DNA from: an uncultured Opitutaceae bacterium
GTDB taxonomy: Bacteria; Verrucomicrobiota; Verrucomicrobiia; Opitutales; Opitutaceae
Length of the DNA stretch: 64,000 bases
Assembly: GCA_937902925.1 (NCBI GenBank)
Contig: CALFNN010000080.1
Span: 1-64,000, forward strand
Reading direction: 5' to 3'
Position 1 is the stretch's first letter. Every line of letters starts with the position of its first letter. Shown here piece by piece: positions 8,589 to 58,053 of this stretch. The position numbers and the translations under genes were made by a program. The notes below the pieces were generated by a model. It saw nothing but the letters and a program-made list of their open reading frames with translations. It was not told the origin of the DNA and searched no databases.

Positions 8589-8834
8589 TCAGGAGCCCTG
8601 ACTGTCGGCCAGGAGCGCGCCGCTTTCGTCCGCCGTCAGGGTGGTGGCCCAGGCCCGGCGGCTGAGCGCGGCACTCTGCGACCAATCCACCTGCGTCGGT
8701 CTCGCCGCGGAAGGCGGAACGACCTTCGCCACGATTTTGCCCCGGCGCGTCACGTCGACTTCCTCGCCTTTGGCCACCCACTTGAGCACCTTGGAATAAT
8801 TGTTCCGCAGCTCGCGCACCGTTGTCGTTCTCAT
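8589..8834 (-). CDS. Phd/YefM-family antitoxin
   Basis: MRTTTVRELRNNYSKVLKWVAKGEEVDVTRRGKIVAKVVPP is a canonical Phd/YefM N-terminus. Start trimmed from the GTG-initiated ORF to the internal ATG. Confidence 0.75.
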   Translation of the reverse strand: MRTTTVRELRNNYSKVLKWVAKGEEVDVTRRGKIVAKVVPPSAARPTQVDWSQSAALSRRAWATTLTADESGALLADSQGS

Positions 8835-8911
8835 GTGCGACACAGTGTAGCACATCGCGGTCATGTCAATCGGGGAGGCGTCGGGCGACAGGGTCGGCGG
8901 AAGCGTGGCCT

Positions 8912-33586: not shown

Positions 33587-33595
33587 GGCGGCGGA

Positions 33596-34465: not shown

Positions 34466-34492
34466 GGGCGGACGGGCGGCGGCGCGCCGCGG

Positions 34493-35353
34493 CTAGACGG
34501 CGACGGGCGCGGCCGTCTCGCGGACGGTGACCTCGACCTTGAGCGAACGCGTGGGCGCGCCGCGGTAGGTGCCGTTGACGGGGCGGATGTCCGCGTAGTC
34601 GCGACCGACCGCGACCTTGACGTAACGATCGTCGGCGGCGCGGTTGTGCGTCGGGTCGAACGCGGCCCAGCCGTGGCCGGGCACGTAGGCCTCGATCCAC
34701 GCGTGCGAGGCCTCGATCTCGCGCGGACGGCGGGTGTCGTTGAAAAAATAACCGCTCACGTAGCGGGCGGGAATGCCGACGCTGCGGCAGAGACCGAGGA
34801 GCACGTGGGCGAAATCCTGGCAGACGCCCGTGCGCAGCTTGAGCGCCTCGGGGGCGCGCGTGTTCACGCCGGTGGAGTTCGGTTTGTAGGCGAAGGTCTT
34901 GTAGATGTGTTCGCCGAGGCGGCGGACATCGCTCCACACATCGGCACGGCCCACCGCGAGCGCGTCCTGGGCCTCGCGCCAGAGTTCGACGTCGAGCGGG
35001 ACGTAGTTGGAACTCGTGTAGAACTCGGCGAGCATCTCACGCTCCGGGGCGACCTCGAGCGCGGCGGCGGAGACGACGGGCACGGCGGGGCGCTCGGCCG
35101 TCGGCACCGTGTCGACCATGGACGTGGCCTCGATGATCAACTTGGTGTGCGGTGCGGCGACGTCGAAGTAGTGGATGGTGTTGCCGTAAAAGTCCTCGTA
35201 TTCGCGGGTCGCGGCCGACGGCGTGAGCTCGAGCTGGAACTCGCGGCAATGCTGCAGCGGATCGCGCAACGGCTGGAGGCGGACCTCGTTGAAGCTGTCG
35301 TGCGCCTTGCCGGCGTAGGTGAAGGTGGTGCGATGGACAACGCGAAGATTCAT
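34493..35353 (-). CDS. transglutaminase-family protein (paralog)
   Basis: MNLRVVHRTTFTYAG...TGVCQDFAHVLLGLCRSVGIPARYVSGY...ASHAWIEAY. Start at cat 35351-35353; upstream 73 codons are run-on. Confidence 0.8.
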   Translation of the reverse strand: MNLRVVHRTTFTYAGKAHDSFNEVRLQPLRDPLQHCREFQLELTPSAATREYEDFYGNTIHYFDVAAPHTKLIIEATSMVDTVPTAERPAVPVVSAAALEVAPEREMLAEFYTSSNYVPLDVELWREAQDALAVGRADVWSDVRRLGEHIYKTFAYKPNSTGVNTRAPEALKLRTGVCQDFAHVLLGLCRSVGIPARYVSGYFFNDTRRPREIEASHAWIEAYVPGHGWAAFDPTHNRAADDRYVKVAVGRDYADIRPVNGTYRGAPTRSLKVEVTVRETAAPVAV

Positions 35354-35414
35354 GGCGTCGGGCCGGGTGGGCGGGGCGCGGCGGAAGGGGAGCGGGAACG
35401 GAACGAGGCGACAG

Positions 35415-36467
35415 CTATTGCTGCTGCTGTTGCTGCTGCTGTTCCTCGATCGAGGACTCCGCGGGGTAAAACATGGTCGTCTGGACGACTTCGTCGCCGA
35501 TGGTGTCGAGGGTGGCTTGGATATCCATGAGGAATTCGTGCAGGCCTTGGTCCAGCACATCGGTGATGGCAAGCGATTGCAGGTCGGCGAGGAGGCGGCG
35601 CGAGGCGCGGCCGGCGGCGGTGCGGGGGCGGGCGCCGGTCTCGCCGAGGATGCGGCGGAGAAACTCGTCGACCTGCGCGACGCAGAAATGCAGCGAGCGG
35701 GGGAAGGAGTCGGAAAAAATGAGAAACTCGCCGACCTTCCACGGAAGGATTTCGCGGACGTAGAAACGGCGGTAGGCCTCGAGCGCGCTGGCGGAGCGGA
35801 GCACGGCCTGCCATTGCGCGGTGTCGACCGCGCCGCCGACGTCGGTCGCGCTGGGAAGCAGGATGTGGTATTTGACGTCGAGGATGCGGGTGGTCTTGTC
35901 GGCGCGCTCGAGGTATTTGCCGAACTCGATGAATTCCCAGCCCTCGCTGCGCGAATAGGTCGAGGTCGTGAGGCCCTGGAAGAGATGGGCGGCGCGCTTG
36001 ACGTTGTTGAAGAACTCGCCGGCGCCCGTCGCCCAGATCTCCTCGGAGCTGCGGTCGTGGAGGTAGAGGTAGAGCTCGTTGATCGTCTCCCACATCTCGG
36101 CGGAGATCTGGTCGCGGATCATGCGGGCGTTCTCGCGCGCGGCGTTGACGCAGCCGCGGATGGAGTTCGGATTACGCAGGTCGAACGCGAAATACTCGGT
36201 GACGTTGTGGCTGTCGGCGATGTCGTAGTGCTTCGCGAATAATTCCTCGTCGCCCGAGCTGAGCAGGATCGAGCCCCAGTGCTCCTTGATGGTGGTGTCG
36301 GTGAAGCCCTGGAAATCGAGCAGGAGCTGGAGGTTGACGTCGAGGAGGCGCGAGAGGTTTTCGGCGCGCTCGATGTAACGGCTCATCCAATAGAGCGAGT
36401 GCGCGACGCGGGACAGCATCACGGTCGCCTGCGGGCGGAGGAGGGGGGCGTTGGCGGGGGTGGGCAT
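35415..36467 (-). CDS. alpha-E domain protein (DUF403), with C-terminal poly-Gln tail
   Basis: MLSRVAHSLYWMSRYIERAENLSRLLDV is the canonical alpha-E N-terminus. Ends EEQQQQQQQQ, encoded by (CAG/CAA)8. Confidence 0.8.
   Translation of the reverse strand: MPTPANAPLLRPQATVMLSRVAHSLYWMSRYIERAENLSRLLDVNLQLLLDFQGFTDTTIKEHWGSILLSSGDEELFAKHYDIADSHNVTEYFAFDLRNPNSIRGCVNAARENARMIRDQISAEMWETINELYLYLHDRSSEEIWATGAGEFFNNVKRAAHLFQGLTTSTYSRSEGWEFIEFGKYLERADKTTRILDVKYHILLPSATDVGGAVDTAQWQAVLRSASALEAYRRFYVREILPWKVGEFLIFSDSFPRSLHFCVAQVDEFLRRILGETGARPRTAAGRASRRLLADLQSLAITDVLDQGLHEFLMDIQATLDTIGDEVVQTTMFYPAESSIEEQQQQQQQQ
35418..35446. repeat. (CAG/CAA)8 trinucleotide repeat encoding a poly-Q tail
   Basis: ttgctgctgctgttgctgctgctg on plus strand, in frame at the 3' end of the alpha-E gene. 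Confidence 0.8.
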
Positions 36468-36600
36468 GCTTTTCAGAAGCTCCAGACTTCAAGCGCCAAG
36501 CTCCAGAGAAACCTCGAAAATCGAAGTCGGGAAAATCAGGAGCTGGGAGGTTGGGAGCTTCATGGGAGCTTGGAGATTGGTGCCGGGAGCTTCCGGCTCG
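36468..36600. repeat. intergenic palindromic repeat element (CCAAGCWCC-unit family), copy C (inverted)
   Basis: caagcgccaagctccagagaaacctcgaaa is the reverse complement of tttgaagtttctctggagcttgg in copies A/B; also ggagcttggagattggtgccgggagctt. Confidence 0.65.
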
Positions 36601-36606
36601 TCCGGC

Positions 36607-38067
36607 TCATTCGTCGCCCTGGAGCACCCAGGTGTCCTTCGAGCCGCCGCCCTGGGAGGAGTTGACGACGAGCGAACCCTTGCGGAGCGCGACGCGCGTG
36701 AGGCCGCCGGGTGTGACGGTGATCTTTTCGCCGTAGAGGATGTAGGGGCGCAGGTCGATGTGGCGGCCCTCGAGGTGGCCGTCGCACCAGGTCGGCGAAC
36801 GCGAGAGATTGATGGGATCCTGCGCGATGAAGTTGCGGGGATTGGCGGCGACCTGGGCACGGAAGGCCTCGCACTCCGCCTTGGTCGACGCGGGGCCGAT
36901 CAGCATGCCGTAGCCGCCGGCCTCGTTGGCGGATTTCACGACGAGCTTCTCGATGTTCTCCAGGATGTATTTCCGCTGGAGCGGCTCGGAGGCGAGATAC
37001 GTGTTCACGTTCGCGAGGATCGGCTCCTGGTCGAGGTAGTATTTGATGAGCTGGGGGACGTAGGCGTAGATGACCTTGTCGTCGGCGACGCCGGTGCCGA
37101 TGGAATTGGCGAGCGCGACATGGCCGGAGCGGTAGGCGTTCACGAGGCCGGGCACGCCGAGCATCGAGTCGGGCCGGAAGACGGACGGGTCGAGAAAATC
37201 GTCGTCGATGCGCCGGTAGATGACATCGACCCGCACGAGCCCGGCGGTCGTGCGCATGAACACGCGGTCGTCGCGGACGACGAGATCGCGGCCCTCGACG
37301 ATGGGGATGCCCATCTGGCGCGCGAGGAAGCTGTGCTCGAAATAGGCGCTGTTGAAGACGCCGGGCGTGAGGAGGACGACGCTGGGCTTGTCGCTGCGGG
37401 CCGGGGCGAGGTGGAGAAGCGCCTTGAGGAGATCGTCCGCGTAGGTCTCGACCGGGCGGACGCCGTAGCTCTGAAACAAATTCGGAAAGGCGCGGCGCAT
37501 CGCGCTGCGATTTTCCACCATGTAACTCGCGCCGGACGGACAGCGGAGGTTGTCCTCGAGCACGAGGTAGTTGCCGCGGGCGTCGCGAATCAGGTCGGTG
37601 CCGCAGATGTGAACGTAGATGCCGCGCGGCACCTTGCAGTTCATGAACTCGCGGCGGAAATGCTTCGCGCCGAGGATGAGCGCGGGCGGCACGAGTTTGT
37701 CCTTGAGGACCTTCTGGCCGTGATAGACGTCGTCGAGAAACAGGTTGAGCGCCGTGATGCGCTGCACGAGGCCGGCCTCGATGCGGGACCACTCGGCGTT
37801 CGGGATGACGCGGGGGACGAGATCGAACGGGAAGATGCGCTCGGTGCCCTGCGAATCGCTGTAGACCGTGAAGGTGACGCCGCGCCGCAGAAACGCGAGG
37901 TCGACGGCGCCGCGCCGCTGCTCGAACTCGTCCCGGGCCAGCGTGCCCAGCCGCTCCGCGAGGCGGCGGTAGTGGGGGCGCACGTCGGTGGACGACGTGA
38001 ACATCTCGTCGAAATAGTCGGCGGTTTCGTAGCTGGGATTGAGGATCGACAAGGAGGGTTTTGACAC
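36607..38067 (-). CDS. circularly permuted type-2 ATP-grasp protein
   Basis: Conserved family signature throughout ([11 protein letters not shown]...[34 protein letters not shown]...). GTG start (cac 38065-38067). Confidence 0.85.
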
Positions 38068-38125
38068 GGGCCCGCTGGTTGAGCAGTTCCCTTGCCAGAC
38101 AGGCTCGCCGGGCGGCCGGGGGTCG

Positions 38126-39001
38126 TCAACGACGCAGCACGGTAAACACCGTGCCCGCCAGGATCAGCGCGGCGCCGGCCAGTTCGTGGACGGTGAAATG
38201 CTCGTGGAAAAACGCCGCGCCGCCCGCGGCGACACCGAGCGGCACCAGCATTTGCAGCAACGATCCCTCGCCGACCGGCAGGTCGCGGAACGCCCGGGTC
38301 ATGGTGAGTTGACCGCTGCCGGCGGTCAGGCTGGCCAGGAGCAGGACGCCCCAGGCGGCGGGGGAAAGCGGCGCGAAGGTGGCCACGGCCGGCACGGTGC
38401 AGATCAGGAGGCCGTAGACGCATTGCGCGGAGAAGATCGTCGAGGTGTGCTCGGTCGCGTGCAATTGTCGGATCATCACGACCACGTAGGCCGAGCCAAA
38501 GGCGGAAAGGATGGCGACGAGATCGTAGAAGCCGGGCCGGGCATCGAGGGCGAGGAGGTTCGTGAGCAGGGCGAGCCCGGCCAGCGCGGCGGCGCTCCCG
38601 GCGAGCAGGGCGGGTCGGAGCCGTTCGCGCAGGATCCACGCGGCAAGCAGCGCACCCCAGATCACGTAGGTGTTGTTGATGAAAATCGCGCGGCCGGCGC
38701 CGAGGTGGATGACGGCGAGGTAAGTGAGGTAGACCCCGAAGCCGCCGACGAGCCCGCGCTCGGCGAGCTTGCGGCGGCGGAAGAGATGCGACGGCTCGAA
38801 CTCGCGCCAGTAGACGGCGGCGATCAGCCCGAGGCCGACGACGAACCGGCTGCACGAGACGAGCCAGAGATTGGCGGCGTGCATCTCGCCGAGCGCCCGC
38901 ACCAGGAGGACATTCGCCGTGAAACACGCGGTCGAAACGAGCATGAGCACCACACCGCGGGCGTGGTGCGACGAGCTGGGCGGCGACGGTTGGTCGGTCA
39001 T
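38126..39001 (-). CDS. DMT-superfamily (EamA-like) transporter
   Basis: Ten predicted TM helices in two EamA-like halves. Confidence 0.75.
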
Positions 39002-46677: not shown

Positions 46678-48477
46678 TTAGACGGAGCGGGCGAGGTAGG
46701 CGCGCCAGCCGCCGAAACGCGTGATGTCCTCGGCGCCGGCGAGGGCGGCGGGTTCGCAGAGGAAACCTTTCACGGATTCGCCCGTGGCGAGGACCACGGT
46801 GCCGATGCAGAGCGGCGATGGCACGGCGGCAACAAAACTGCCGAAAGCGGCAACGGGGAGTTCCCACACTTCCACGGCGATGGATGCACCGCCGTCGGCG
46901 ACACGGACGAGGCCGGGTTTCGGCGGGGTTGAGTTGGGCAGGGCGTGGAGACGGTAGACCGGCGCGGTGTTGCCCGACCAGACGAGGCGAGCGCCACGGT
47001 CGGTGAGTTGATGATTGAGGGGCAGACCGGAGAGATGGGCGCCGACGACGGCGAGCTGGATGGTCGTTGGTGCGGCCGTAGTGGCGGTGGGCGGCGATGA
47101 CGGCGCGGGCGGGAGCGGATGCGAGGTGGCGCCGAGTTTGCCGCCGATGGCGGCGTGCCAACGGGCGGCAAGGGCGAGGAGAGTGGGCTCGCTCCACGCG
47201 GGTGCGATGAACGTGACGCCCCACGGGGCGCCGTCGCGGCGGATGCCGGCGGGCACGGCGAGGGCGGCGAGGTCGAGGAGGTTAACGAAGTTGGTGTAGG
47301 TGCCGAGGCGGGTGTTGAGGAGCAACGGCTCGGCGGCGACCTCGGCGACGGTGTAGGGGCGCGGCGCAGTGGGGACGAGGAGCACATCCATTTTCTCCCA
47401 CTCGGCGGCGGCGCGGCGGGCGAGGGCGGCGAGGCGATAAAAGCCTTCGAACGTGTCGGCGGCGCTGAGATTCGCGGCGCCCTCGACGATCTTGCGCGTG
47501 ACGGGGAAAAACGCGTCCGCGTTTTTCTGGTGAAATGCGCGGAGCGCGGCCCAGCGCTCAGCGACCCACGGACCCTGGTAGAGCAAGGCGGCGGCTTCGC
47601 GGAAAGGGGAAAAGTCGATCTCGACGAGCTGGGCGCCGAGGGCGGTAATGCGGGAGAGATTTTCGCGGAAGAGGCGTTCGGCTTCGGCGTCACCGAAGAA
47701 CTCGAGCGCGGTGGGTTCGGGAACGCCGACGCGAAGCGACGCGGGAGCGGAGGTGGTGGTTGCGCGCGAGCGGGAAAACGAATCCTCGGGATCGAAGGCC
47801 TCGGCGACGCGGGCGACATCGGCGGCGTCGCCGCAGGTGAGCGCGAAGATCGAAACGCAGTCGAGCGAGCGGCAGGCGGGGACGACGCCGCGGGTGCTGA
47901 GGGCGCCCTTGGTGAGCTTGAAGCCGACGAGGTTGTTCAGGCCGGCGGGGATGCGGCCGGAGCCGGCGGTGTCGGTGCCGAGGGAAAACGAGGCGAGGCC
48001 GGCGGCGACGGCGACGGCGGAGCCGCTGCTGGAGCCGCCGGGGATCAGGTCGGCGCGAAACGGATTGCGCGGGACGCCATAGGGCGAGCGGACGCCAACG
48101 AGGCCGGTGGCGAACTGGTCGAGGTTGGTCTTGCCCACGGGAATCGCGCCGGCGTCGAGGAGACGCTGGACGACGGGCGCGGAGTCGGCGGGCGTGTAGG
48201 CGAACTCCGGGCAGCCGGCGGTGGTGGGGACGCCGGTGAGGTCGATGTTGTCCTTGATCGCGAAGGGAACGCCGTAGAGCGGCAACGTGGAGCGGTCGAG
48301 CGATTCGAGACGGCGGGCGTGGACGAGGAGTTCGTCGCGCGAGAGGAGACGAATCCAGACGGCGGGATCGGCGTGCGTGGCGATGCGACGGAGAAGTTCG
48401 TCGACGAGAGCGGTCGGCGTGAGGGAGCCGTCGGCGTAGGCGGCACGGAGGGCGGCGAGGTCGAGGGAGAAAGGCAT
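46678..48477 (-). CDS. atzF: allophanate hydrolase
   Basis: Amidase-signature domain (GGSSSGSAVAVAAGLASFSLGTDTAGSGRIPA) and the AtzF C-terminal domain. Start at cat 48475-48477. Confidence 0.85.
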   Translation of the reverse strand: MPFSLDLAALRAAYADGSLTPTALVDELLRRIATHADPAVWIRLLSRDELLVHARRLESLDRSTLPLYGVPFAIKDNIDLTGVPTTAGCPEFAYTPADSAPVVQRLLDAGAIPVGKTNLDQFATGLVGVRSPYGVPRNPFRADLIPGGSSSGSAVAVAAGLASFSLGTDTAGSGRIPAGLNNLVGFKLTKGALSTRGVVPACRSLDCVSIFALTCGDAADVARVAEAFDPEDSFSRSRATTTSAPASLRVGVPEPTALEFFGDAEAERLFRENLSRITALGAQLVEIDFSPFREAAALLYQGPWVAERWAALRAFHQKNADAFFPVTRKIVEGAANLSAADTFEGFYRLAALARRAAAEWEKMDVLLVPTAPRPYTVAEVAAEPLLLNTRLGTYTNFVNLLDLAALAVPAGIRRDGAPWGVTFIAPAWSEPTLLALAARWHAAIGGKLGATSHPLPPAPSSPPTATTAAPTTIQLAVVGAHLSGLPLNHQLTDRGARLVWSGNTAPVYRLHALPNSTPPKPGLVRVADGGASIAVEVWELPVAAFGSFVAAVPSPLCIGTVVLATGESVKGFLCEPAALAGAEDITRFGGWRAYLARSV

Positions 48478-48486
48478 TTCGGAAGA

Positions 48487-48590
48487 GTGTCTCGCGAAGG
48501 ATTGGAAGGGAGCGAAGGATAAAACCAAAGGAAGGAAAAGGTTGGAGCTGGGATGGATTGGGCCTTCGCTTCCTTCGAATCCTTCGCGGG
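48487..48590. repeat. CGAAGG-unit imperfect hairpin element between uca stop and atzF start
   Basis: Arms cgcgaaggattggaagggagcgaagg and ccttcgcttccttcgaatccttcgcg, ~26 bp, separated by a ~30-nt loop. Confidence 0.65.
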
Positions 48591-48604
48591 AAATTTGGAT
48601 TGGA

Positions 48605-51600
48605 TCAGCTTTCCAGGACGATGAGGGTTTCGCCGGCGTTGACGGGGCGGCCTTCGGCGCAGCGGATTTCGCGGACTTTGCCTGCGCGGCTGGCGACGAC
48701 GGTGATTTCCATCTTCATCGATTCGAGGATCACGAGCGCGTCACCCTCGTTGACGGCGGCGCCGGCGGCGACGGCGATTTTCCAGACGTTGCCGGGGATA
48801 TGGGCGATCACGGCGGTGCAGCCGGCGGGAATCGCCTGCTCGTCGACGGCGGCGGCCGAATCGGATTCGGAGGAGAAGTTGAGCTGGCCGGAAATCTCCC
48901 AGCGATGGCGCTCGGCCTCGAAGGCGGCCTGCTGGCGGGATTTGGCGGCGGCGATCGTAGCGGCGTTGGCGGCGAGAAATTTTTCGTAGTCGCGGAGACG
49001 GAAGGTCGTTTGCTCGATTTTCAGCTGCGCGCGACCGTGGGTAAAATCTTCACGGAACTTCGTGAGCTCGGCGTTCGTGACCGGATAGAAACGAATCTGG
49101 TCGAAGAAGCGGAGGAGCCACGGGTGGCCGTCGGTGAACTCGGCGGTTTGCTTGTAGCGGTTCCACATCTGGCAGGTGCGGCCGATGAACTGGTAGCCAC
49201 CGGGGCCCTCCATGCCGTAGACGCAGAGGTAGGCGCCGCCGATGCCGACGGCGTTTTCCGGCGTCCAGGTGCGGGCAGGATTGTATTTCGTGGTGACGAG
49301 ACGGTGGCGCGGATCGACCGGGGTGGCGACGGGGGCGCCGAGGTAAACGTCGCCGAGCGCGAGGACGAGGTAGCTTGCCTCGAAGGCGATGCGGTGGACG
49401 TCGGCGACGGAATCGAGGCCGTTGATGCGGCGGATGAACTCGATGTTGCTGGGGCACCACGGCGCGTCCTTGCGGACGATCTGCATGTATTTGCGGATCG
49501 CGAGAAGGGTGGACTCGTCCTCCCAGGAGAGCGGCAGGTGAACGATGCGCGAGGGCACCTCGATGTCGTCGACGGCGGGGAGTTCGGACTCGGCGCGGAG
49601 CAGAATCTCCATCAGGCGTTCGAGCGGAAGCAGGCGGGCGTCGAAATGAATTTGGAGCGAGCGGATGCCGGGCGTGAGGTCGACGATGCCGGGGAGGTGG
49701 TGGCGTTCGAGCCAGGTTTGGAGCGCGTGGACGCGCATCCGGAGCGCGATGTCGAGGACGAGCGGACCGTATTCGACGAGGAGGTAGGCGTCGCCGGCGC
49801 GGCGGTAGACGACCGCGGGGGCGGCGGGGCGGGCGGGGATGGCGTGGAGGATGGCGGGTTCGGAGGGCGAGGAATGACGAATGACGGATGACGAATGACG
49901 AATGGCGGAGAGGCGGAGGGATTCGATTTCGGCGTCCTGGGCGGTCGCGATGATCCGGGCTTGTTCGGCGGTGAGGGCACGGAAGCGGACCTTGTCGCCG
50001 GGCTTGAGCTGGCCGATTTTCCAGAGTTCGCCGCTGGCGATCGTCGCGGGACAGACGAAGCCGCCGCAACTCGGGCCGTCGGGGCCGAGGATGATCGGCA
50101 TGTCGCCGGTGAAATCGATCGCGCCGATCGCGTAGGCGTTGTCGTGGATGTTCGAAGGGTGCAGGCCGGCCTCGCCGCCGTCGCGGCGCGCCCACTGCGG
50201 TTTCGGGCCGATGAGGCGGACGCCGGTCCGGGCGGAGTTGTAGTGGACTTCGTAGATGGCGCTGAAGAGAGCGGCGATGTCGTCGTTGGTGAAAAAATCT
50301 GGCGCGCCGTGCGGGCCGTAGAGGACGCCGATATCCCAGTCGCGCGTGAGCGGCGAGTGGATCGAGGCGGGTGCGCGGAGGAGCGGAGCGGCGTCGGTCA
50401 CGCCGGCGGGCGTGGCGCGATTGACGCGAAGGACATCGCCGGTGCGGAGGGCGCGGCCGGAGTGACCGCCGAAGAGGCCGAGCGTGAAGGTGGATTTGCT
50501 GCCGAGGTAATCCGGGACGTCGAGGCCGTGGCGGATGGCGAGGTAGGCGCGGAGGCCGGGGCCGTCGACGGAAGCGAGTTGGAGGGTCTGGCCGCGTTTG
50601 ATGCGAAAGGCGCGATGAAAGGCGATGGGTTTGCCGTCGAGCGTCGCGGGCATGTGCGCGCCGGTGAGCGCGACGACGGCGGCCGTGTTGAAGCGGAGCC
50701 TGGGGCCGTTGACGGTGAGTTCGAGGCCGGCGGCGGTGTCGGGGTTGCCAACGAGACGGTTGGCGAGGCGGAACGAGCGGCCATCCATCGGGCCGGAGGG
50801 TGGAACACCGACGTCCCAATAGCCGAGGCGGCCGGGATAATCCTGCACGGTGGTCTGGGTGCCGCCCTCGAGGACGTCGATCGTCGAGGCGGCGTAGGGC
50901 AGCGTGGCGAGGTATTTGGTGGTGACGCCGCCGGCGCGAAACCCGGTGGAGGCGGCGATCTGGCGAAGGTAGTCGAGATTGGTTTCGAGGCCGTGGAGGC
51001 GGGTGTCGGCGAGGGCGGCGTCGAGGCGGGCGAGGGCATCGGCGCGGTCGGAACCGCGGACGATGATTTTCGCGAGGAGCGGATCGTAGAACGCGGAGAC
51101 CTCGGTGCCGCGCTCGATCCACGTCTCGATGCGGGCGGACGTGGCGAAATGGACGTCGGTGAGGGTGCCGGCGGCAGGTTGAAAGTTTTTGCCGGGATCC
51201 TCGGCGTAGACGCGGACCTGGATCGAGGCGCCGGTGGAGGCGGGCGTGAAGTTGGAAAGATCAAGTTCGCCGGCGGCGGCGCGAAGCATCCATTCGACAA
51301 GATCGATGCCGGTGACTTCCTCGGTGACGCCGTGCTCGACCTGGAGGCGCGTGTTGACTTCGAGAAAATAGAATTCGCCGGTGGCGTTGTCGTAGACGAA
51401 TTCGACGGTGCCGGCGTTCTGGTAGCCGGCGGCGGCGCCGAGGCGGGCGGCGCAATCGAGGAGGCGCGTGCGCTGCGCGGGCGACAGGCCGGGAGCGGGC
51501 GTCTCCTCGATGACCTTCTGGTTGCGGCGCTGGACGGAGCAGTCGCGTTCGCCGACGGCGACGACGTGGCCGCGGCCGTCGCCGAAAATCTGGACCTCGA

Positions 51601-52222
51601 TGTGGCGGGCGTGCTCGACGAATTTCTCGAGGAAGATGCCGCCCTCCTTGAAATTGTTTTTCGCGAGGCGGCCGACGGCGGCGAAGGCGGCGGAGAGCTC
51701 GGCGGGCTGGCGGATGAGCGACATGCCGATGCCGCCGCCGCCGGCGGTGGACTTGAGCATGACGGGGTAGCCGATGCGCGCGGCCTCGGCGCGGGCGTGA
51801 GCCTCGTCGCGGAGAAGTTCGGAGCCGGGGAGGAGGGGGACGTTTTGTTTTTGCGCGATGGCGCGGGCGGCGTGCTTGAGCCCGAACATGCGCATCTGGT
51901 CGCCAGTGGGGCCGATGAAGACGAGGCCGGCGGCGGCGCAGGCGTCGGCGAAGGCGGGATTTTCGGAGAGGAAACCGTAGCCGGGATGGATGGCTTGAGC
52001 GCCGGTGGCTTTGGCGGCGGCGATGATCTTGTCGGCGTCGAGGTAAGACTGAGCGGCAGGAGCGGGGCCGAGGTGGACGGATTCGTCGGCTTGCTGGACG
52101 TGGAGGGAGTGCCGGTCGGCGTCGGAGTAAACGGCGACGGACGCGATGCCCATGTGCCGCAAGGTGCGAATCACACGGCAGGCGATGGCGCCGCGGTTGG
52201 CGATGAGGACTTTGGAAAACAT
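48605..52222 (-). CDS. uca: urea carboxylase (biotin carboxylase + carboxyltransferase/AHS domains + biotinyl domain)
   Basis: N-terminal biotin carboxylase (MFSKVLIANRGAIACRVIRT), central allophanate-hydrolase-subunit-like domains, C-terminal biotin attachment motif EAMKM variant ESMKMEI. Confidence 0.9.
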   Translation of the reverse strand: MFSKVLIANRGAIACRVIRTLRHMGIASVAVYSDADRHSLHVQQADESVHLGPAPAAQSYLDADKIIAAAKATGAQAIHPGYGFLSENPAFADACAAAGLVFIGPTGDQMRMFGLKHAARAIAQKQNVPLLPGSELLRDEAHARAEAARIGYPVMLKSTAGGGGIGMSLIRQPAELSAAFAAVGRLAKNNFKEGGIFLEKFVEHARHIEVQIFGDGRGHVVAVGERDCSVQRRNQKVIEETPAPGLSPAQRTRLLDCAARLGAAAGYQNAGTVEFVYDNATGEFYFLEVNTRLQVEHGVTEEVTGIDLVEWMLRAAAGELDLSNFTPASTGASIQVRVYAEDPGKNFQPAAGTLTDVHFATSARIETWIERGTEVSAFYDPLLAKIIVRGSDRADALARLDAALADTRLHGLETNLDYLRQIAASTGFRAGGVTTKYLATLPYAASTIDVLEGGTQTTVQDYPGRLGYWDVGVPPSGPMDGRSFRLANRLVGNPDTAAGLELTVNGPRLRFNTAAVVALTGAHMPATLDGKPIAFHRAFRIKRGQTLQLASVDGPGLRAYLAIRHGLDVPDYLGSKSTFTLGLFGGHSGRALRTGDVLRVNRATPAGVTDAAPLLRAPASIHSPLTRDWDIGVLYGPHGAPDFFTNDDIAALFSAIYEVHYNSARTGVRLIGPKPQWARRDGGEAGLHPSNIHDNAYAIGAIDFTGDMPIILGPDGPSCGGFVCPATIASGELWKIGQLKPGDKVRFRALTAEQARIIATAQDAEIESLRLSAIRHSSSVIRHSSPSEPAILHAIPARPAAPAVVYRRAGDAYLLVEYGPLVLDIALRMRVHALQTWLERHHLPGIVDLTPGIRSLQIHFDARLLPLERLMEILLRAESELPAVDDIEVPSRIVHLPLSWEDESTLLAIRKYMQIVRKDAPWCPSNIEFIRRINGLDSVADVHRIAFEASYLVLALGDVYLGAPVATPVDPRHRLVTTKYNPARTWTPENAVGIGGAYLCVYGMEGPGGYQFIGRTCQMWNRYKQTAEFTDGHPWLLRFFDQIRFYPVTNAELTKFREDFTHGRAQLKIEQTTFRLRDYEKFLAANAATIAAAKSRQQAAFEAERHRWEISGQLNFSSESDSAAAVDEQAIPAGCTAVIAHIPGNVWKIAVAAGAAVNEGDALVILESMKMEITVVASRAGKVREIRCAEGRPVNAGETLIVLES

Positions 52223-52228
52223 CGGAAA

Positions 52229-52332
52229 GGTGTCTCGCGAAGGATTCGAAGGGGACGAAGGTTCGAAAAAAGGAGAGCCGGAATATCTCTACTGGATTGG
52301 ACGTTCGCTTCCTTCGTATCCCTCGCGAGACA
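52229..52332. repeat. CGAAGG-unit imperfect hairpin element immediately upstream of uca start
   Basis: Arms gtgtctcgcgaaggattcgaaggggacgaagg and cgttcgcttccttcgtatccctcgcgagacat; same family as 48487-48590; single arms at 52743-52780, 54805-54837, 45450-45500. Confidence 0.65.
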
Positions 52333-52340
52333 TGGGATTA

Positions 52341-52742
52341 TCAGGCGAAGAAATCTTTTCCCTCGGCTCCGTTCGTGACGCGCGTGATGCCGTTTTTGAG
52401 ATGAACTTCGTTGAAGTTGATGAGGAACCCGAGCTGGAGCGGGATCAGGCGAAGGTAATTCCAAGTCGTCTTCTTGAAGAGGTCGGTGACTTGAGCCACG
52501 GACTTCAGCTCGACCAAGACGAGATTGTCGATGATGAGGTCGGCGCGAAAGCCGACTTCCTCCAGCAGTTCACCATCGTAAAAAACAGGAATCGGTTTCT
52601 GTCGTTCGATTTGGTGACCAAGCTTTCGGAGTTCCTTCGCCATCGCGGTTTCGCAAGCGGACTCCAGCAGACCCGGCCCGAGTTTCGTGTGGGCTTTGAA
52701 CGCGGCATCTAACGCGGCTTTTCCAACGATCTCTTGGTTCAT
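52341..52742 (-). CDS. GxxExxY protein (PD-(D/E)XK-like small protein)
   Basis: LGPGLLESACETAMAKELRKLGH...FRADLIIDNLVLVELKSV...LQLGFLINFN is the GxxExxY family pattern. Only the C-terminal 133 aa of track ORF 52341-53351 are genic. Confidence 0.8.
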   Translation of the reverse strand: MNQEIVGKAALDAAFKAHTKLGPGLLESACETAMAKELRKLGHQIERQKPIPVFYDGELLEEVGFRADLIIDNLVLVELKSVAQVTDLFKKTTWNYLRLIPLQLGFLINFNEVHLKNGITRVTNGAEGKDFFA

Positions 52743-52780
52743 GATTCCTTCGTTTCCTTCGGACCCTTCGCGAGACACCC

Positions 52781-53416
52781 TCAGGGATTCCAGATCAGGA
52801 CCTCGATCGGCGTCGGGTTGTAGGCGTTGCAGGGGTTGTTGAGCTGGGGGCAGTTCGAGATCACGCAGACGACGTCGCGCTCGGCGCGGAGTTCGACGTA
52901 GTAGCCCGGGGCGCTGACGCCGTCGGCGAAGGTGAGGCGGCCGTCGGGCGTCACAGGGACGTTCATGAAGAAATTGATGTTCGGGGCGACGTCGCGCTTG
53001 CCGAGATCGGGGCGCCAGGCGTGGACGCCGCAAATGAAGCTGTCGCGACAGGCGTGCATGAACTCCTTGTCGTGGGCGTAGCGCATCGTGTTGCTCTCGC
53101 GGGAGCAGGCGCCGCCGAGCGTGTCGTGTCGGCCGCAGGTGTCGGCGACGATGGTAAGAAGCGGGTCGCCGAGCTGGGAGTAGAGCGTTGTCCCGGTGCT
53201 GAGATAGAGCGCGGCCTGACGCTGGACGGTGTCGCTCGCGCTGTAGCGGTTGAACGGATCGTGCGCGTCGTAGAAGAGAGTGTCCGCGGCCTGGTTGCCC
53301 TCGAGGTCGACGATGCGGAGGATCTGGCCGCGTTTGATTTCGTGCGACCACGGATCGCCGGCGGGGATGACATGGCGATAAAGAGCCACGGTTGGATCGA
53401 GCGTGCTGGTGGTCAT
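52781..53416 (-). CDS. urea carboxylase-associated protein (DUF1989 family), copy 2
   Basis: 211 aa ([40 protein letters not shown]...) with the cupin-like DUF1989 pattern. Paired with the adjacent paralog next to urea carboxylase, as in the known uca cluster. Confidence 0.75.
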
Positions 53417-53421
53417 GGCGA

Positions 53422-54177
53422 TCAATCGCGGAGGGCGTGGTAGGTTTCGGTGTTCGCGAAGGCGCGGACGTTTTCGGGGCGGGAGCGGCGGCACGCGTCG
53501 TCGGGAGCGGGAGGCGAAGTGCGGAAGACCTCGAGGCGGACGGAGCGCGGGTGATAGGCGGGATCGGGATCGAGCGGATGCTGGCAGGTGTTGAGGACGA
53601 CGAGCGTGTCGAGTTCGAAGCGCAGGTCGACGTGGGCGCCGGGTGGCGAGTTGTCGGGCACGAAGGTGAGGCGGCCGGTATCGTCGGCGACGACCTTGCT
53701 GAAAAGATTGAGGTTGGGGACGAGGTCGCGCGGGCCGAGGCCCCATTTCGCCAGTTCGATGAGAAAGCAGTCGCGGGCGTTGCGATGCCAGTCGTTGCGG
53801 GCGGTCTGATAGTTTTTCAGGCCGTATTTTTTCGCGACGAGGCTGGCGTCGGAGCAGCCGCAGACGGTGTCGTGCCAGCCGGCGGTGTCCGCGGTGATCG
53901 AGGCGAGGATGCGGCCCATGTCGGAGTGGAGGCAGTAGGGCGCGCGGAGATAGAAAATGTGCTGGCCCTTGAGCGTGTCGGGGAGGTTGTAGCGCTCGGT
54001 CGGAACGTCGGCGTGATAGAGGAGGAGGCCGACGTTGGCGCCGCCGTCGAGATCGGTGAGGCGGAGGGTCTTGCCGCGGGAGAGCACGGCGGACCACATG
54101 CCGGCGTGGGTGAGCGTGCGGGCGAAGATCGGGGCGGCGGGCGCGGGGTCGATGATGAGGTCGGGAGCGGCGGGCAT
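53422..54177 (-). CDS. urea carboxylase-associated protein (DUF1989 family), copy 1
   Basis: 251 aa, paralog of the downstream gene ([19 protein letters not shown]...). Stop 5 nt upstream of the copy-2 start. Confidence 0.75.
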
Positions 54178-54359
54178 GGCGGGCGGGGGAGGAATGGGAC
54201 CGACGGGACGAATGGGACCAATGGGACGGATAGGGTGGGTGGAGATGGCGGATGGAAACGGGAGGATGTTACGATTATTTATATTCGTGTGCTGACAAGA
54301 GCAGAGCGCGGGCCAAACCCGAGACGGCGTGCGGCGGGCAAGACCGTGCGAGCGAGGCG

Positions 54360-54797
54360 CTACAGGAGCGGCGGCATCGCGGTGGCGGTGAGGTTCAGGC
54401 GGGCGTGCTTCACGCCCTTGCAGGCGGCGAGCGTGTCGGCAAGGCTGCGCAGATCGCGGGCGGGACCCTGCACGAGGAGCACCTCGAGATAGTGATGGTG
54501 CTCGAGATGGACGTGGGTCGAGGTGACGACCATGAGATAATTCTGGTGCTGGATGTCGGCGAGCTTCCGCTGGAGATTTCGTTTCCGATAGTCGTAAACG
54601 AGGCTGATCGTGCCGGCCATCGACTTGGTGCCGAGCTCCTGCGCGTGCTCGATCAATTGCTCGCGGGCCATCTCGGCGATGGCGTGGGAGCGGTTGGGGA
54701 GCTGACGACGGGTGACCATGTCGTCGAGCTCGTCGAGGAGGTCGGCGGGGAGCGAGACGCTGAAGCGGGCGAGCTGGGGGCGGCGGGCGGCGGTCAT
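54360..54797 (-). CDS. nikR: nickel-responsive transcriptional regulator NikR
   Basis: Ribbon-helix-helix N-terminus ([38 protein letters not shown]) plus C-terminal ACT-like domain with the His/Cys nickel site ([21 protein letters not shown]...[10 protein letters not shown]). Confidence 0.8.
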
Positions 54798-54884
54798 GGG
54801 CGGGGTGTCTCGCGAAGGGAGCGAAGGGCGGAGGAGGCAGACTTCATGGCCGGGAGGGTTTGCGCAAGACGTGGCGGTCGCGGG

Positions 54885-55793
54885 CTATTCGACATCATCG
54901 CCGACCTGCGTCAGGCGGACGATGGGAAGTTTTTCCACGGCGGATTCGGTGCGGGGGTGGATGAGTTCGTCGATGCGACGGCGGGTGGCGAGGAACTCGG
55001 GCGCGGTGAACTGGTCGGCGTGACGCGGGCGCGGGACGGAGACCTCGATGAGTTCCTGCACCTCGCCCGGGTGCGCCTTGAGCACGAGGATGCGGTCGGC
55101 AAGCAGCACGGCCTCGTCGAGGTCGTGCGTGATGAAGAGGATGGTGACGTCGACGTTGCGCCAGATTTCCATCAGGTGCATCTGCATCTGGCAGCGGGTC
55201 TGGGCGTCGAGGGCGCCGAACGGTTCGTCCATGAGCAGAATCCGGGGCTGGGCGGCGAGGGCGCGGGCGATGGCGGTGCGTTGCTTCATCCCGCCGGAGA
55301 GTTGCGCGGGATAGGAATCCTGAAAACGCGAGAGGCCGACGAGATCGATCCACTGGCGGGCCTCGCTGTCGGCCTGACTGAGCGACATGCCTTTCATCGT
55401 GAGCCCGAACATCACGTTGCGCTTTACGGTGAGCCACGGGAAGAGCGTGTAGCCCTGAAACACCATGCCGCGATCGGGGCCGGGGCCGTGGACCTCGTGG
55501 CCGTCGAGCAGGATCCGGCCCGAGGTCGGCTGCTCGAGGCCGGCGACGAGGCGGATGAGGGTGGACTTGCCGCAGCCCGAGGGCCCGATCACGCAGATGA
55601 ATTCGCGCCGATGGACGCGAAACGAAACGTCGCGCAGCGCGGTGACGATGCCGCCATCGTTGCCGGCGAACTGGCGGCCGAGGTGCTCGACGTCGAGAAC
55701 GACGGGGCGTTCCTTCAGCCGGCGGAAACGATCGGCGACCGCGGGCGATTGCGCGCGATAGTCGGGCAGGAAATCTTCGACCGGAGCGCTCAC
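54885..55793 (-). CDS. ABC transporter ATP-binding protein (NitT/TauT family)
   Basis: Walker [31 protein letters not shown], Walker [16 protein letters not shown] start overlapping the permease stop (GTGA). Confidence 0.85.
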
Positions 55794-56836
55794 GATCCCG
55801 TGGGAGGTTGGTCGTTGTCCGGGAACAGCAGCACGTCGCGCCCGGCGAAGAGCCGCTGGAAGAAATTGCGAATGCCGGTCGGGCGGGGATCCTTCCAGAC
55901 GAAGATCTGGCGGCCGAGAAACGCGAGGGCCTGGTCGGTGGTGAGCCCGATCACGCCGATGATGATGATGGCGGCGTAGACGTTGTCGAAGTTGCGGTAT
56001 TTGGCCTGCTGGTTGATGAAAAACGTGATTCCGCTGCTGACGCCGACGACCTCGGCGACGATGAGGTAGGTCCACGCCCAGCCGAGGAGGATGCGCTGGT
56101 CGTTGTAGATGTCGACAAGGCAGCTCGGGACGATGACGCGAAGCAGGAGCTGGCCGGGGCGGGCGCCGAGGGTTTGCGCGGCCTCGACGAGCGCGGGGTC
56201 GTGGCGGCGGACGGTGTTGGCGATGACGAGGACCTGTTGAAAAAACGTGCCGAGGACGATGATGGCGATCTTCGGCGCGTCGTAGATGCCGAGGACGGCG
56301 ACGGCGAGCGCGCCGAACGCCGGCGCTGGCATGTAGCGAACGAAATCGATCACCGGCTCGAAGAGGCGCGAGACCGGGCCATAGGCGCCGCAGACGATGC
56401 CGAGAGGGACGCCGACGAGCGACGAGATGACGAAGCCCCAGAAGATGGTCTTGATGCTGAGCGCGAGACTCTGGTGAAGCCACGGCTCGCCGCGGAGAAT
56501 CGGCGGCGTCGTGAAGGCGGTCCAGAATGCGCGACCGACCTCGTGCGGCGCGGGGAGAAAAACGGGATTCGCCGGCCGGCCGGTGGCGGCGTGGCCGCCG
56601 GCGGCGACGGCCTTCGCATTTTCCTCGGCGAAGGCCGGGCGCTCCACGAGGAGGCCCGGCTTGAACCACGCGACGTCACCCGGCGAATCGATCCGCATCA
56701 GCGGGTGCCAGATCCACGGCACGTAGCTGACGAGCGCCCAAAGCGCCAGCGGCAGGAGGAACGAGCAGGTCGTCAGGACCGCACGCAGGCGAGGCGAGGG
56801 CTCCCTGCCGATGGCCACCCAGCGGGCGCGAGACAT
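55790..56836 (-). CDS. ABC transporter permease (NitT/TauT family)
   Basis: Six TM helices with EAA-like loop ([23 protein letters not shown]). Confidence 0.8.
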
Positions 56837-56872
56837 GAACGCGAGGTTGAACGGGCGCCGGTGGCCCGGGAA

Positions 56873-57868
56873 TTATTTTTTCGCGGCGGCGATGGCCTCG
56901 GCGGTGAGCTTGGCGTCGAAGTAAGTGGTGACGTTCTGCGACTCCTTGTAGACGCTGTTTTTCACGTTGAAATCGTTGGCGACGGCGGAGGAGCCGGCGA
57001 GCGAATTGAAGCCGGGGCCCTTCCTGGCGATGATTTTCGCGCTGTCCGCGAGCGTGAGAAAATGGGTGCCGCCGATGAACGCCGCATAGTCGGCGGGCGT
57101 GGAGCCGGTGCGCGCGGCCATGATCTTCAGGGCGTCGTCCTTCGTGGCCGGGTCGGTGATGTAGGCGAGGACCTTGTCCCAGACCGAGACGAGCTTCACC
57201 CATTCGGCGCGATGCTGCGCGAGGCTCTGCGGGGAGACGGCGATGGTGTCGTAGATGAGGCCGGGCTCGTTGGCGCTGGTGTAGATGGCGGTCGAGCCGG
57301 CGACGGCCTTGAGCGCCTGGCCGGCGTTGGGATTCCAGGCGGCGATGGCGTCGACCTGGCCCGAGGCGAAGACCTGCGGCGTCTGGTTGGTCGGCGTGTT
57401 GACGATGGTGAGATCGGCCTCGCTCATCCCGATTTTCTTGAGGGCGTTGAGCAGCATGAGGTGCTCGACGAGGCCGACCTCGAGGCCGATCTTCCTGCCC
57501 TTGAGCTCGGCGAGCGACTTGATGCCGGGCTTCGCGACGATCATGTCGTTGCCGTTCGAATAGTCGGTCAGCATGATGACGACGTTCTTCGCGCCGTTGG
57601 CGCCGGTGACGAGCGAGTCGCCGTTGGTGACCATGACGGCGTCGACCTTGCCGGCGGTGAACGCGTCCATCGACGGGGCGTATTCGAACCATGAAAATTC
57701 GGCGTCGACGCCGGCGTCCTTGAGCCAGCCCTTCTGGATGGCGACCTCCCACGCAACCCAGCCGGGCCAGTCGCTATAGGCGATTTTAAGCGGGGCGGCC
57801 GGCAGGATGGAAGGCAGCGCGGCGAGCACCGGAAGGGCGAGGCAGAGAAGGCGGCGGAGGAGCTTCAT
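56873..57868 (-). CDS. ABC transporter substrate-binding protein (NMT1/THI5-like, NitT/TauT family)
   Basis: Signal peptide then periplasmic binding fold (LKIAYSDWPGWVAWEVA...). Belongs with the permease/ATPase and the urea carboxylase region. Confidence 0.8.
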   Translation of the reverse strand: MKLLRRLLCLALPVLAALPSILPAAPLKIAYSDWPGWVAWEVAIQKGWLKDAGVDAEFSWFEYAPSMDAFTAGKVDAVMVTNGDSLVTGANGAKNVVIMLTDYSNGNDMIVAKPGIKSLAELKGRKIGLEVGLVEHLMLLNALKKIGMSEADLTIVNTPTNQTPQVFASGQVDAIAAWNPNAGQALKAVAGSTAIYTSANEPGLIYDTIAVSPQSLAQHRAEWVKLVSVWDKVLAYITDPATKDDALKIMAARTGSTPADYAAFIGGTHFLTLADSAKIIARKGPGFNSLAGSSAVANDFNVKNSVYKESQNVTTYFDAKLTAEAIAAAKK

Positions 57869-58018
57869 GGCGGGATCGTGTTACGAATGTTTTCGGGTGT
57901 GTTACGCCTCGGTTTCAGCACGTAGTGTGCCGGGCCATCGAGAATTTGCCCATGGGGTGGAGGCAGCGGCGCGGGCATCGATAGCGGCGCCGTGTCTGCC
58001 GGATGCCGCGCGGACGAC

Positions 58019-58044
58019 AAAAAAAGCCCGGCGGGTGGCCGGGC
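58019..58044 (-). terminator. rho-independent terminator after the DUF4340 gene
   Basis: Minus-strand RNA reads AGCCCGGCCACCCGCCGGGCU followed by UUUUUUU; 10 nt after the stop at 58054-58056. Confidence 0.6.
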
Positions 58045-58053
58045 TGGGAGGAA

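Follow-up and report, generated by a model that had tools for sequence, protein, structure and literature searches.

We analysed a stretch of 64,000 nucleotides from an uncultured Opitutaceae bacterium (GenBank assembly GCA_937902925.1, contig CALFNN010000080.1, positions 1 to 64,000; hereafter the window), in which a block of nine co-directional minus-strand genes (46678-57868) carries a NikR-family regulator gene among genes for an ATP-binding cassette (ABC) transporter, two DUF1989 proteins, a biotin-dependent carboxylase and allophanate hydrolase. The original prediction read this block as a nickel-free urea amidolyase cluster in which NikR would switch between routes of urea degradation according to the nickel supply. 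Judged by its sequence, the cluster is a guanidine carboxylase pathway and not a urea amidolyase route, and its regulator is, on alignment, a branch of the NikR family without the high-affinity nickel site. We propose that the regulator is probably a dedicated repressor of guanidine catabolism, of NikR descent but not nickel-sensing, which would govern a two-unit guanidine-assimilation regulon.

Guanidine as the predicted substrate of the cluster

The guanidine carboxylase pathway consists of guanidine carboxylase, the heteromeric carboxyguanidine deiminase CgdAB, whose subunits are two DUF1989 proteins, and allophanate hydrolase (PMC11410670, PMC12186494). Guanidine carboxylases are recognized by Asp at position 1584 of the Kluyveromyces lactis (K. 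lactis) enzyme and by Asp rather than Asn at position 1330 (PMC11410670). When aligned to 5I8I/3VA7 (5I8I native numbering), the window carboxylase reads GAIDFTGD at 1330, versus GAINFTGD in urea amidolyase, and LGDVYLG at 1584, versus LGDVFLG in K. lactis urea amidolyase. The same Asp motif is present in 48 of the 48 related loci in which this region is readable.

Families were assigned by scoring the window's open reading frames (ORFs), 50 of which were scanned, against NCBIfam and Pfam. The models TIGR02712, TIGR03424, TIGR03425 and TIGR02713 are all matched above their cut-offs, and the paired DUF1989 paralogues next to the carboxylase, the allophanate hydrolase and an ABC importer are all in place. 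Given that Asp, and not the Asn of urea amidolyase, occupies the position of K. lactis 1330 and that two DUF1989 homologues of carboxyguanidine deiminase (cgd) are encoded, we assign the cluster to guanidine, and the earlier claim of a nickel-free urea amidolyase is replaced by the guanidine route. Urea amidolyase, or urea carboxylase plus allophanate hydrolase (yeast DUR1,2; Oleomonas sagaranensis), does share the TIGR02712 family and the same allophanate hydrolase with the window; it differs in the specificity residue, which is Asn where the window has Asp, and the two carboxyguanidine deiminase homologues would be unneeded in the urea route.

The periplasmic substrate-binding protein (SBP) may be a component of a putative guanidine importer. 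It is syntenic with the riboswitch-controlled SBPs of Pantoea and Rhizobium that are named 'putative urea ABC transporter'. In the family check originally suggested for the transporter, the SBP scores 130 bits with TIGR01728 and lies below the TIGR03427 cut-off (Table 1); it is therefore a divergent member. The mum operon of Acinetobacter baumannii (A. baumannii), a different urea carboxylase locus with the LysR-type regulator MumR (PMC5050338), was considered and set aside as not relevant.

A NikR-family regulator that lacks the nickel site

Homologues of the regulator carry an N-terminal ribbon-helix-helix (RHH) domain (PF01402) and a C-terminal, ACT-like NikR_C domain (PF08753). Residues 8-140 of the window protein align with NikR of Pyrococcus horikoshii (2BJ1; E = 7e-31), and it also aligns with the NikR proteins of Helicobacter pylori and Escherichia coli (E. 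coli); its nearest relatives are from metagenome-assembled genomes (MAGs) of Opitutaceae, Lacunisphaera and Opitutus. With the canonical proteins of these three species (1Q5V, 2HZV, 2CA9, 2BJ1) it has in common the two-domain architecture, the length and the conserved Arg of the RHH beta-strand. The high-affinity site of E. coli NikR is made up of His87, His89 and Cys95 together with His76 of the neighbouring subunit, and its square-planar His3Cys geometry is thought to be the basis of the nickel response (PMC7055735). At these four positions the window regulator has His, His, His and Tyr, the Tyr standing in place of P. horikoshii Cys97.

Two sets of relatives were compared. The genome set (L001-L081) comprises 80 loci from a scan of 185,579 species genomes and one contig found by exact-protein look-up, and it spans Opitutaceae (60-91% identity), Chthoniobacterales and Verrucomicrobiaceae (50-55%) and one Phycisphaeraceae MAG. 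The metagenome set, for which the query was an 8-sequence alignment of more distant non-canonical members, comprises 80 loci with a G+C content of 39 to 69%. In the genome set the ligand positions read HHHY in 45 proteins, HHHS in 12, HNHY in 8, HRHS in 8 and otherwise in the rest, with Cys in 0 of 81. Cys95 is found in 0 of the 80 metagenome proteins, 14 of which keep all three His and 38 one or no His; RHQR is the pattern in 20. Hence, the nickel-ligand Cys is kept in 0 of 161 cluster-linked relatives. Homologues as close as 80-94% identity often have Asn, Gln or Ser in place of His87, and one group has Tyr in place of His89 and has also lost the His residues nearby. Whereas canonical NikR has Cys95, the subfamily has Tyr, Ser or Thr at this position, its His ligands are variable, and patterns such as RHQR, YHLT and RQQI occur in its wider membership.

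A further alignment brought together E. coli NikR, P. horikoshii NikR and the 150 closest representatives of the family (clustered at 50% identity). Of its sequences, 106 read HHHC. Position 102 (E. coli numbering) is Gln in 39 of the 45 representatives without HHHC, as against 3 of the 104 with it. The same Gln is present in 82 of 82 proteins of the genome set and 80 of 80 of the metagenome set; Gln102 marks the subfamily and co-segregates with ligand loss. Cluster-linked proteins also differ from canonical NikR in H62 (Tyr or His), D91 (Glu in 81 of 82), R/K102 (Gln, as above), C95 (Tyr or Ser), residue 118 (Cys in 75 of 82) and an added C-terminal Pro-Pro tail. Purifying selection is clear, with RHH residues and many positions of the C-domain invariant down to about 50% identity.

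Scores against the NCBIfam models of NikR are mixed. The window regulator lies above the cut-offs of NF003381 (139.4 vs 105) and NF002815 (103.8 vs 83), and below those of TIGR02793 (91.8 vs 175.45), NF002169 and NF001884. A relative with the ligand pattern RHQR and no possible nickel site (P0134) also passes NF003381, and the cut-off of that model therefore does not discriminate. Members of the subfamily score 92-139 bits against this equivalog cut-off of 105, and their names are split between 'NikR' and 'CopG family'.

These data bear on an adapted form of the switch that had been proposed, in which a genuine NikR, responsive to Ni(II), would shut down the ATP-costly nickel-free route whenever nickel can be supplied to urease or a nickel guanidinase. 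Passing the NF003381 equivalog cut-off agrees with it, as do the H76, H87 and H89 equivalents of the window protein, the extra His beside its missing Cys, and operators of NikR type (see below). The nickel response, however, rests on the square-planar His3Cys site (PMC7055735), of which the Cys is absent throughout; in close orthologues His87 has become N, R, S or Q and His89 Y or F with the gene context unchanged, and RHQR, YHLT and RQQI sites cannot coordinate nickel, yet they are found in the same context. The window part of the search for urease and nickel transporter genes was negative among the 50 ORFs scanned with Pfam or NCBIfam (stretches such as 4.5-10, 16-17.6 and 22-24 kb being unscanned). 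A NikR regulon of nickel uptake or nickel enzymes is not seen in the window either, where both predicted operators precede guanidine-pathway operons. The original prediction named the loss of nickel-binding His/Cys residues as an outcome that would refute it, and the alignment gives this outcome. Given that the Cys ligand is lacking and that the nickel site is absent or degenerate across the subfamily, nickel-dependent switching between urea routes is improbable.

Conserved linkage of the regulator to guanidine genes

In 78 of the 81 loci of the genome set a cgd homologue is the next gene downstream of the regulator gene, and the three remaining contigs end first; on the longer contigs the second cgd gene and then the carboxylase gene follow downstream. 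Cgd, carboxylase or hydrolase genes are present in 62 of the 80 metagenome loci, while 11 have a cluster-type transporter only (7 of them cut within 400 nt) and 7 are short contigs. With enough flanking DNA, the regulator always adjoins the cgd and carboxylase genes or the cluster transporter; among the pathway genes, only the cgd pair and the carboxylase nearly always adjoin it. The same gene order in about 150 independent loci is not due to chance. The original prediction tied a NikR-family regulator to the cluster and held the tie to be void if related clusters never contained nikR. The recurrent synteny bears it out, all relatives of the regulator being found in such clusters. The persistence of the cgd-carboxylase linkage while the nickel site decays is our main argument against nickel sensing.

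Cultured bacteria have the arrangement as well. On a plasmid of Novosphingobium sp. EMRT-2 the order is SBP, permease, ATPase, 'CopG family ribbon-helix-helix protein', UAAP1, UAAP2, uca and atzF, and in A. baumannii the regulator gene stands between the carboxylase and hydrolase genes. The A. baumannii locus, L163, is from NZ_CP077849.1, a record of 3.66 Mb that is labelled a plasmid and is probably a chromosome. PLSDB has 238 records with UAAP2 genes and about 15 with the regulator (Novosphingobium, Acinetobacter, Sphingobium, Asticcacaulis). The regulator is lineage-specific yet recurrent.

A variant in Chthoniobacterales (L062, 778-9674; L059, L061, L063, L070) has, divergent from the regulator, an operon of SBP, permease, ATPase, HupE/UreJ, ureA, ureB, GxxExxY, ureC, ureF, ureG and ureD genes. 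No allophanate hydrolase was found nearby in these loci, and urease may replace it in these genomes. Together with a box of the E. coli type (GTATGA-N16-TCATAC), this operon speaks for the nickel switch; the urease and the HupE/UreJ nickel permease are the one trace of the nickel link of the original prediction, neither having been found among the 50 ORFs scanned in the window. A branched-chain-type, possibly urea, ABC transporter lies downstream in the variant. At L062 4570-4862, the Rfam family '5_ureB_sRNA' scores 100 bits on the strand opposite the coding sequence of the urease alpha subunit, a match that most likely reflects coding-sequence conservation and not a small RNA.

Most relatives (L001, 3155-9923; many of L006-L161) have extra genes between transporter and regulator, all of which are missing from the window. 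Directly upstream of the regulator, a creatininase-family gene is found in 52 loci and a highly conserved glutamine-synthetase-like (GS-like) gene in 68. Another frequent module encodes polysaccharide deacetylase-like, Rieske oxygenase, SDR, FGE-sulfatase-like and AP_endonuc_2 proteins. The extra genes may feed substituted guanidines into the pathway.

Predicted operators and promoters

Two predicted operators, O1 and O2 (Table 1), precede the transporter genes and the enzyme genes. O1 ends 9 nt before the SBP start codon, and O2 is an exact match to ACACG-N12-CGTAACA. In 53 Opitutaceae loci the first cgd gene is preceded by GT(A/C)A(C/T)AC-N14-GTAACAC with fixed spacing, to which O2 is orthologous. 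A position weight matrix was trained on these orthologous sites with the window excluded, and hits of at least 8 bits were counted. Over the whole window it gave two hits only, both on the minus strand, at 54264-54295 (28.1 bits, the top hit) and 57876-57907 (27.7 bits). Nearly all Opitutaceae loci also have a hit outside the training sites, placed 7-100 nt upstream of the SBP gene, and there is almost nothing else in 20 kb. Raw pattern counts at 2-3 mismatches were not above chance (3 vs 2.0 expected; 1 vs 1.1), and the significance of the operators rests on position, orthology and the matrix scan instead. O2 and O1 thus fall in the two intergenic regions (54178-54359 and 57869-58053) that had been named for motif discovery across relatives. 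It was also correctly noted at the outset that the window lacks an E. coli-type GTATGA-N16-TCATAC box, GTAACAC-based boxes being there instead, and the position of O1 lends support to one part of the alternative then offered, control of the transporter by a NikR-family regulator.

As with canonical NikR operators, which have two half-sites of 6-7 bp about two helical turns apart, O1 and O2 have two half-sites (7 bp, 21 bp centre to centre) and a spacer within the 13-16 bp range. Rodionov et al. predicted the delta-proteobacterial NikR box GTGTTAC-N13/14-GTAACAC, with half-sites reversed in one species (PMC545781); its half-site GTAACAC is that of the present boxes. Because the half-site GTAnTAC is near-palindromic, apparent direct and inverted arrangements amount to the same for a symmetric RHH dimer. 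In the divergent region between SBP and regulator genes of Chthoniobacterales the box is GTATTAC-N14-GTAATAC or GTATGA-N16-TCATAC, the E. coli NikR box. The variant is lineage-dependent, with GTAACAC in Opitutaceae and GTATGA or GTATTAC in Chthoniobacterales.

Boxes accompany the regulator. They are found in the regulator-bearing loci L162 and L163, and Novosphingobium has them; none was found in the Pantoea and Rhizobium loci without the regulator. The A. baumannii locus has three (1845-1872, 8823-8850, 14177-14204), two of them perfect and each opening an operon; its further boxes precede a regulator-hydrolase-SBP unit and a divergent permease/ATPase unit. In the window, the regulator gene is the final gene of the transporter operon, and the 87-nt gap upstream of it has no operator. 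In the metagenome loci no operator was found in the interval between regulator and cgd; these genes are co-transcribed and the box stands before the SBP gene. Between O2 and the cgd start codon the window has an insertion of about 85 nt, where orthologous loci have 0-30 nt; within it (54187-54228) lies a 9/18-nt tandem repeat, GGTCCCATT-like, of about 4 copies, and L002 has similar short repeats.

Promoter-like elements of the sigma-54 type, P1 and P2, lie next to the operators (Table 1); both match the pattern of GG at -24 and GC at -12 with a 10-bp separation. A TGGCAC-N5-TTGC element directly precedes the box in the metagenome loci, and GGC(A/C)(C/T)-N6-(T/C)GC(A/T) is found no more than 45 nt upstream of 60 of 96 operators (62%) versus 0.7% of random positions in the same loci. 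A TTGAC before the operator was considered as a sigma-70 -35 box and rejected, the sigma-54 -12 region fitting better, and a generic sigma-70 scan found nothing at either promoter. P1 and P2 are predicted to be sigma-54-dependent, and the promoter type suggests additional control by nitrogen limitation. Each operator would extend from near the -12 element or the start site as far as about +30, the position of a repressor.

We infer that the regulator binds these boxes. Conceivably, the heptamer pair is instead a promoter component or the target of a different factor, and the NikR-like protein is a ligand-free or decaying passenger; the indirect route by which regulator and boxes are linked and the closeness of the boxes to sigma-54-like elements leave room for such a case. 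The sequence and spacing of the boxes match known NikR operators, however, and boxes occur only in loci that encode the regulator and shift in form with the lineage; the regulator itself is under purifying selection, with the RHH and many C-domain positions invariant. A mere passenger is, in our judgement, highly improbable.

Guanidine riboswitches in related clusters

The operons under Guanidine-I and Guanidine-II riboswitches (Pantoea, Rhizobium; in the literature Raoultella, Klebsiella and Pseudomonas syringae) have the same order of SBP, permease, ATPase, UAAP1, UAAP2 and carboxylase genes as the window, and the Rhizobium cluster shares the allophanate hydrolase too. The two places of control also agree, one ahead of the SBP gene and the other ahead of the enzyme genes. 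The riboswitch operons use RNA aptamers and have no regulator gene, whereas the window has a regulator gene between the ATPase and UAAP1 genes, DNA operators and no aptamer. In the clusters of Pantoea vagans and Rhizobium johnstonii, Guanidine-I precedes the SBP gene and Guanidine-II lies further in, an arrangement matched by published enterobacterial clusters that carry both riboswitches together (PMC12186494).

Rfam found no riboswitch in the window (gathering score over the 64 kb; E up to 10 over 52.2-58.3 kb), and control by a guanidine riboswitch is thus not indicated there. None was found before the transporter operon in 19 regulator-bearing sources. The only riboswitches in these sources are a Guanidine-II before the carboxylase gene in L130 and in L141, and a Guanidine-I before cgd in L163. 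The latter (1907-2002) lies just downstream of the perfect box at 1845-1872, which places protein and RNA control in series. By comparison of these loci, the riboswitch pattern ties the regulator-bearing clusters to guanidine, with the regulator apparently replacing Guanidine-I at the transporter promoter.

The same repressor and operators might respond to another effector, such as urea, carboxyguanidine, allophanate, a substituted guanidine, a metabolite of nitrogen status or a product of the creatininase-family or GS-like enzymes, and might form an AND gate with guanidine riboswitches where these are present. The box and Guanidine-I in series in A. baumannii would suit this view, and so would Guanidine-II before the carboxylase gene in L130 and L141, the creatininase-family and GS-like genes directly upstream of the regulator, and the urease linkage in Chthoniobacterales. 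On the other hand, the cgd pair and the carboxylase are the only near-constant neighbours among the pathway genes, the minimal clusters of the window and Novosphingobium have no other substrate sensor and no riboswitch, and dual sensors of one ligand are normal, as in the enterobacterial clusters with Guanidine-I plus Guanidine-II (PMC12186494). Taken together, we regard another effector, with or without such a gate, as rather unlikely, though as the chief competitor of guanidine.

A model of guanidine-dependent control

In the model that we favour, of a NikR-derived repressor of guanidine catabolism, P1 would drive the SBP, permease, ATPase and regulator genes, and P2 those of the enzymes, namely the two homologues of carboxyguanidine deiminase, guanidine carboxylase and allophanate hydrolase. 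Together these would convert guanidine to carboxyguanidine, then to allophanate and finally to ammonia and CO2. A tetrameric, NikR-like RHH repressor, in which the DNA-reading mode of NikR is kept, would bind O1 and O2. Given that both operators lie between the -12 element and the start codon, binding should block transcription, including that of the regulator's own gene; occupancy of the two sites would repress the importer operon, the regulator itself and the enzyme operon. Release would be brought about by a small molecule in the former metal-binding, ACT-like domain, for which guanidine is the likeliest candidate, and the regulator would then do the job of the Guanidine-I riboswitches in Pantoea and Rhizobium. 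It is possible, though we put this forward tentatively, that the NikR-derived protein is the first transcription factor to sense free guanidinium, by way of a remodelled Ni(II) pocket whose ligand releases the tetramer from boxes at sigma-54 promoters.

Several points weigh against this proposal. Repression by the regulator is deduced from the position of its boxes, and guanidine as the effector is a choice that we purely infer, with a chance of being right that comes near, at best, to that of being wrong. Canonical NikR binds DNA when liganded, and an inducer model therefore needs reversed allostery. The window regulator keeps three of the four nickel ligands and a His-rich loop (HVHLEHHHY), and some metal binding is therefore possible for this member. 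The regulated divergent operon of Chthoniobacterales encodes urease and a nickel permease. Guanidine riboswitches accompany the regulator in A. baumannii, L130 and L141, and its own signal could be a different one. Finally, the first half-site of O2 is weak, O1 and O2 reach about 28 bits where the median of relatives is 41, and the sigma-54 assignment is a pattern match only.

A 2025 review names riboswitches as the sole receptors of guanidine known so far other than transporters and enzymes, and asks whether regulatory proteins bind guanidine (PMC12186494). In a full-text search of the literature, NikR or RHH regulators were linked to guanidine, urea carboxylase or allophanate hydrolase only by coincidental co-mention. 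Within the NikR family the regulator would represent a novel functional type, whose regulon is well supported by the comparisons above and whose candidate effector is attractive. From canonical NikR it would differ in having guanidine catabolism, and not nickel uptake, as its regulon, and operators that follow sigma-54-like promoters. The subfamily offers a concrete candidate for a protein sensor of guanidine, with members in the tractable A. baumannii and Novosphingobium, and an apparent case of a metal-sensor scaffold re-used, with the metal site lost and the DNA code kept. If the proposal is true, such a sensor would be widespread, in Verrucomicrobiota, a Phycisphaeraceae MAG, Sphingomonadales, Acinetobacter and many uncultured lineages; if confirmed, regulator and operator would provide a guanidine-responsive, protein-based switch for synthetic biology. 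There is also an annotation error to be noted, in that members just above the NF003381 cut-off are automatically named 'nickel-responsive regulator NikR' though the nickel site cannot form. Likewise, 'urea carboxylase' clusters of this type would be guanidine pathways, and the misnaming distorts inferences on nickel and urea in MAGs.

Features of the window and other observations

The block is real: its genes lie at or near the coordinates given by the original prediction, and NCBIfam matches confirm the gene content assigned there. Upstream it is bounded by a terminator-like hairpin that closes a DUF4340/ABC-2 gene set, downstream by MTHFR and 2-oxoglutarate dehydrogenase genes. The features are collected in Table 1.

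Table 1. Coordinates of genes and predicted control elements of the cluster, in order of transcription
Feature	Position	Strand	Details
Intrinsic-terminator-like hairpin and T-run	58025..58045	-	8-bp stem with 7 GC pairs, then TTTTTTTG
Sigma-54-type promoter-like element P1	57917..57932	-	cGGCAC-N6-TGCT; GG 57931-57930, GC 57919-57918; cGGCACactacgTGCT
Predicted operator O1	57878..57905	-	GTAACAC (57905-57899), N14, GTAACAC (57884-57878); zero mismatches
Periplasmic SBP, NitT/TauT (SsuA-like)	56873..57868	-	TIGR01728 130 bits; TIGR03427 147.9 vs cut-off 333.9
ABC transporter permease	55790..56836	-	NCBIfam
ABC transporter ATPase	54885..55793	-	GTG start overlapping the permease stop codon
NikR-family regulator (RHH and NikR_C domains), without the nickel-site Cys	54360..54797	-	
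Sigma-54-type promoter-like element P2	54300..54315	-	TTGGCCC-N6-CTGCT; GG 54314-54313, GC 54302-54301; TGGCCCgcgctcTGCT
Predicted operator O2	54266..54293	-	weak half-site AGCACAC (54293-54287), N14, GTAACAT (54272-54266)
Carboxyguanidine deiminase subunit homologue, DUF1989, 'UAAP1'	53422..54177	-	TIGR03425, 324 bits vs cut-off 206
Carboxyguanidine deiminase subunit homologue, DUF1989, 'UAAP2'	52781..53416	-	TIGR03424, 330 bits vs cut-off 285
GxxExxY (PD-(D/E)XK-like) small ORF	52341..52742	-	
Biotin-dependent carboxylase	48605..52222	-	TIGR02712, 1892 bits; guanidine-carboxylase signature
Allophanate hydrolase	46678..48477	-	TIGR02713, 812 bits, above cut-off

In the window and in 7 relatives, 8 loci in all, the GxxExxY ORF separates the second cgd gene from the carboxylase gene; it is a sporadic insertion here and probably does not belong to the pathway. 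In L059 and L062, a GxxExxY ORF lies between ureB and ureC (L062, 5118-5531, minus strand). The gap after the second cgd gene is a hot spot for small inserted ORFs: L003 (12160-12450, minus strand) and L029 (12079-12522, minus strand), which are free of GxxExxY, have an opposite-strand ORF there, which we presume to resemble the four-helix-bundle '23S rRNA intervening sequence' protein family (ARGSLYEV motif).

Palindromic AGTTGGTAGTTGG...CCAACTACCAACT elements are found in intergenic regions of Opitutaceae (L003, L021, L023, L037, L038). Copies of the same element lie in frame in the carboxylase linker regions of L003 and L029, where they encode '...TTNYQLP...'; the matching linker of the window carboxylase (49872-49904) has a 7-nt repeat in 4.7 copies, encoding IRHSSSVIRHSS. 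Elsewhere in the window (31424-38163), conserved genes for circularly permuted ATP-grasp, Alpha-E, transglutaminase-like and DUF2126 (putative amidoligase) proteins are found, which are unrelated to the cluster.

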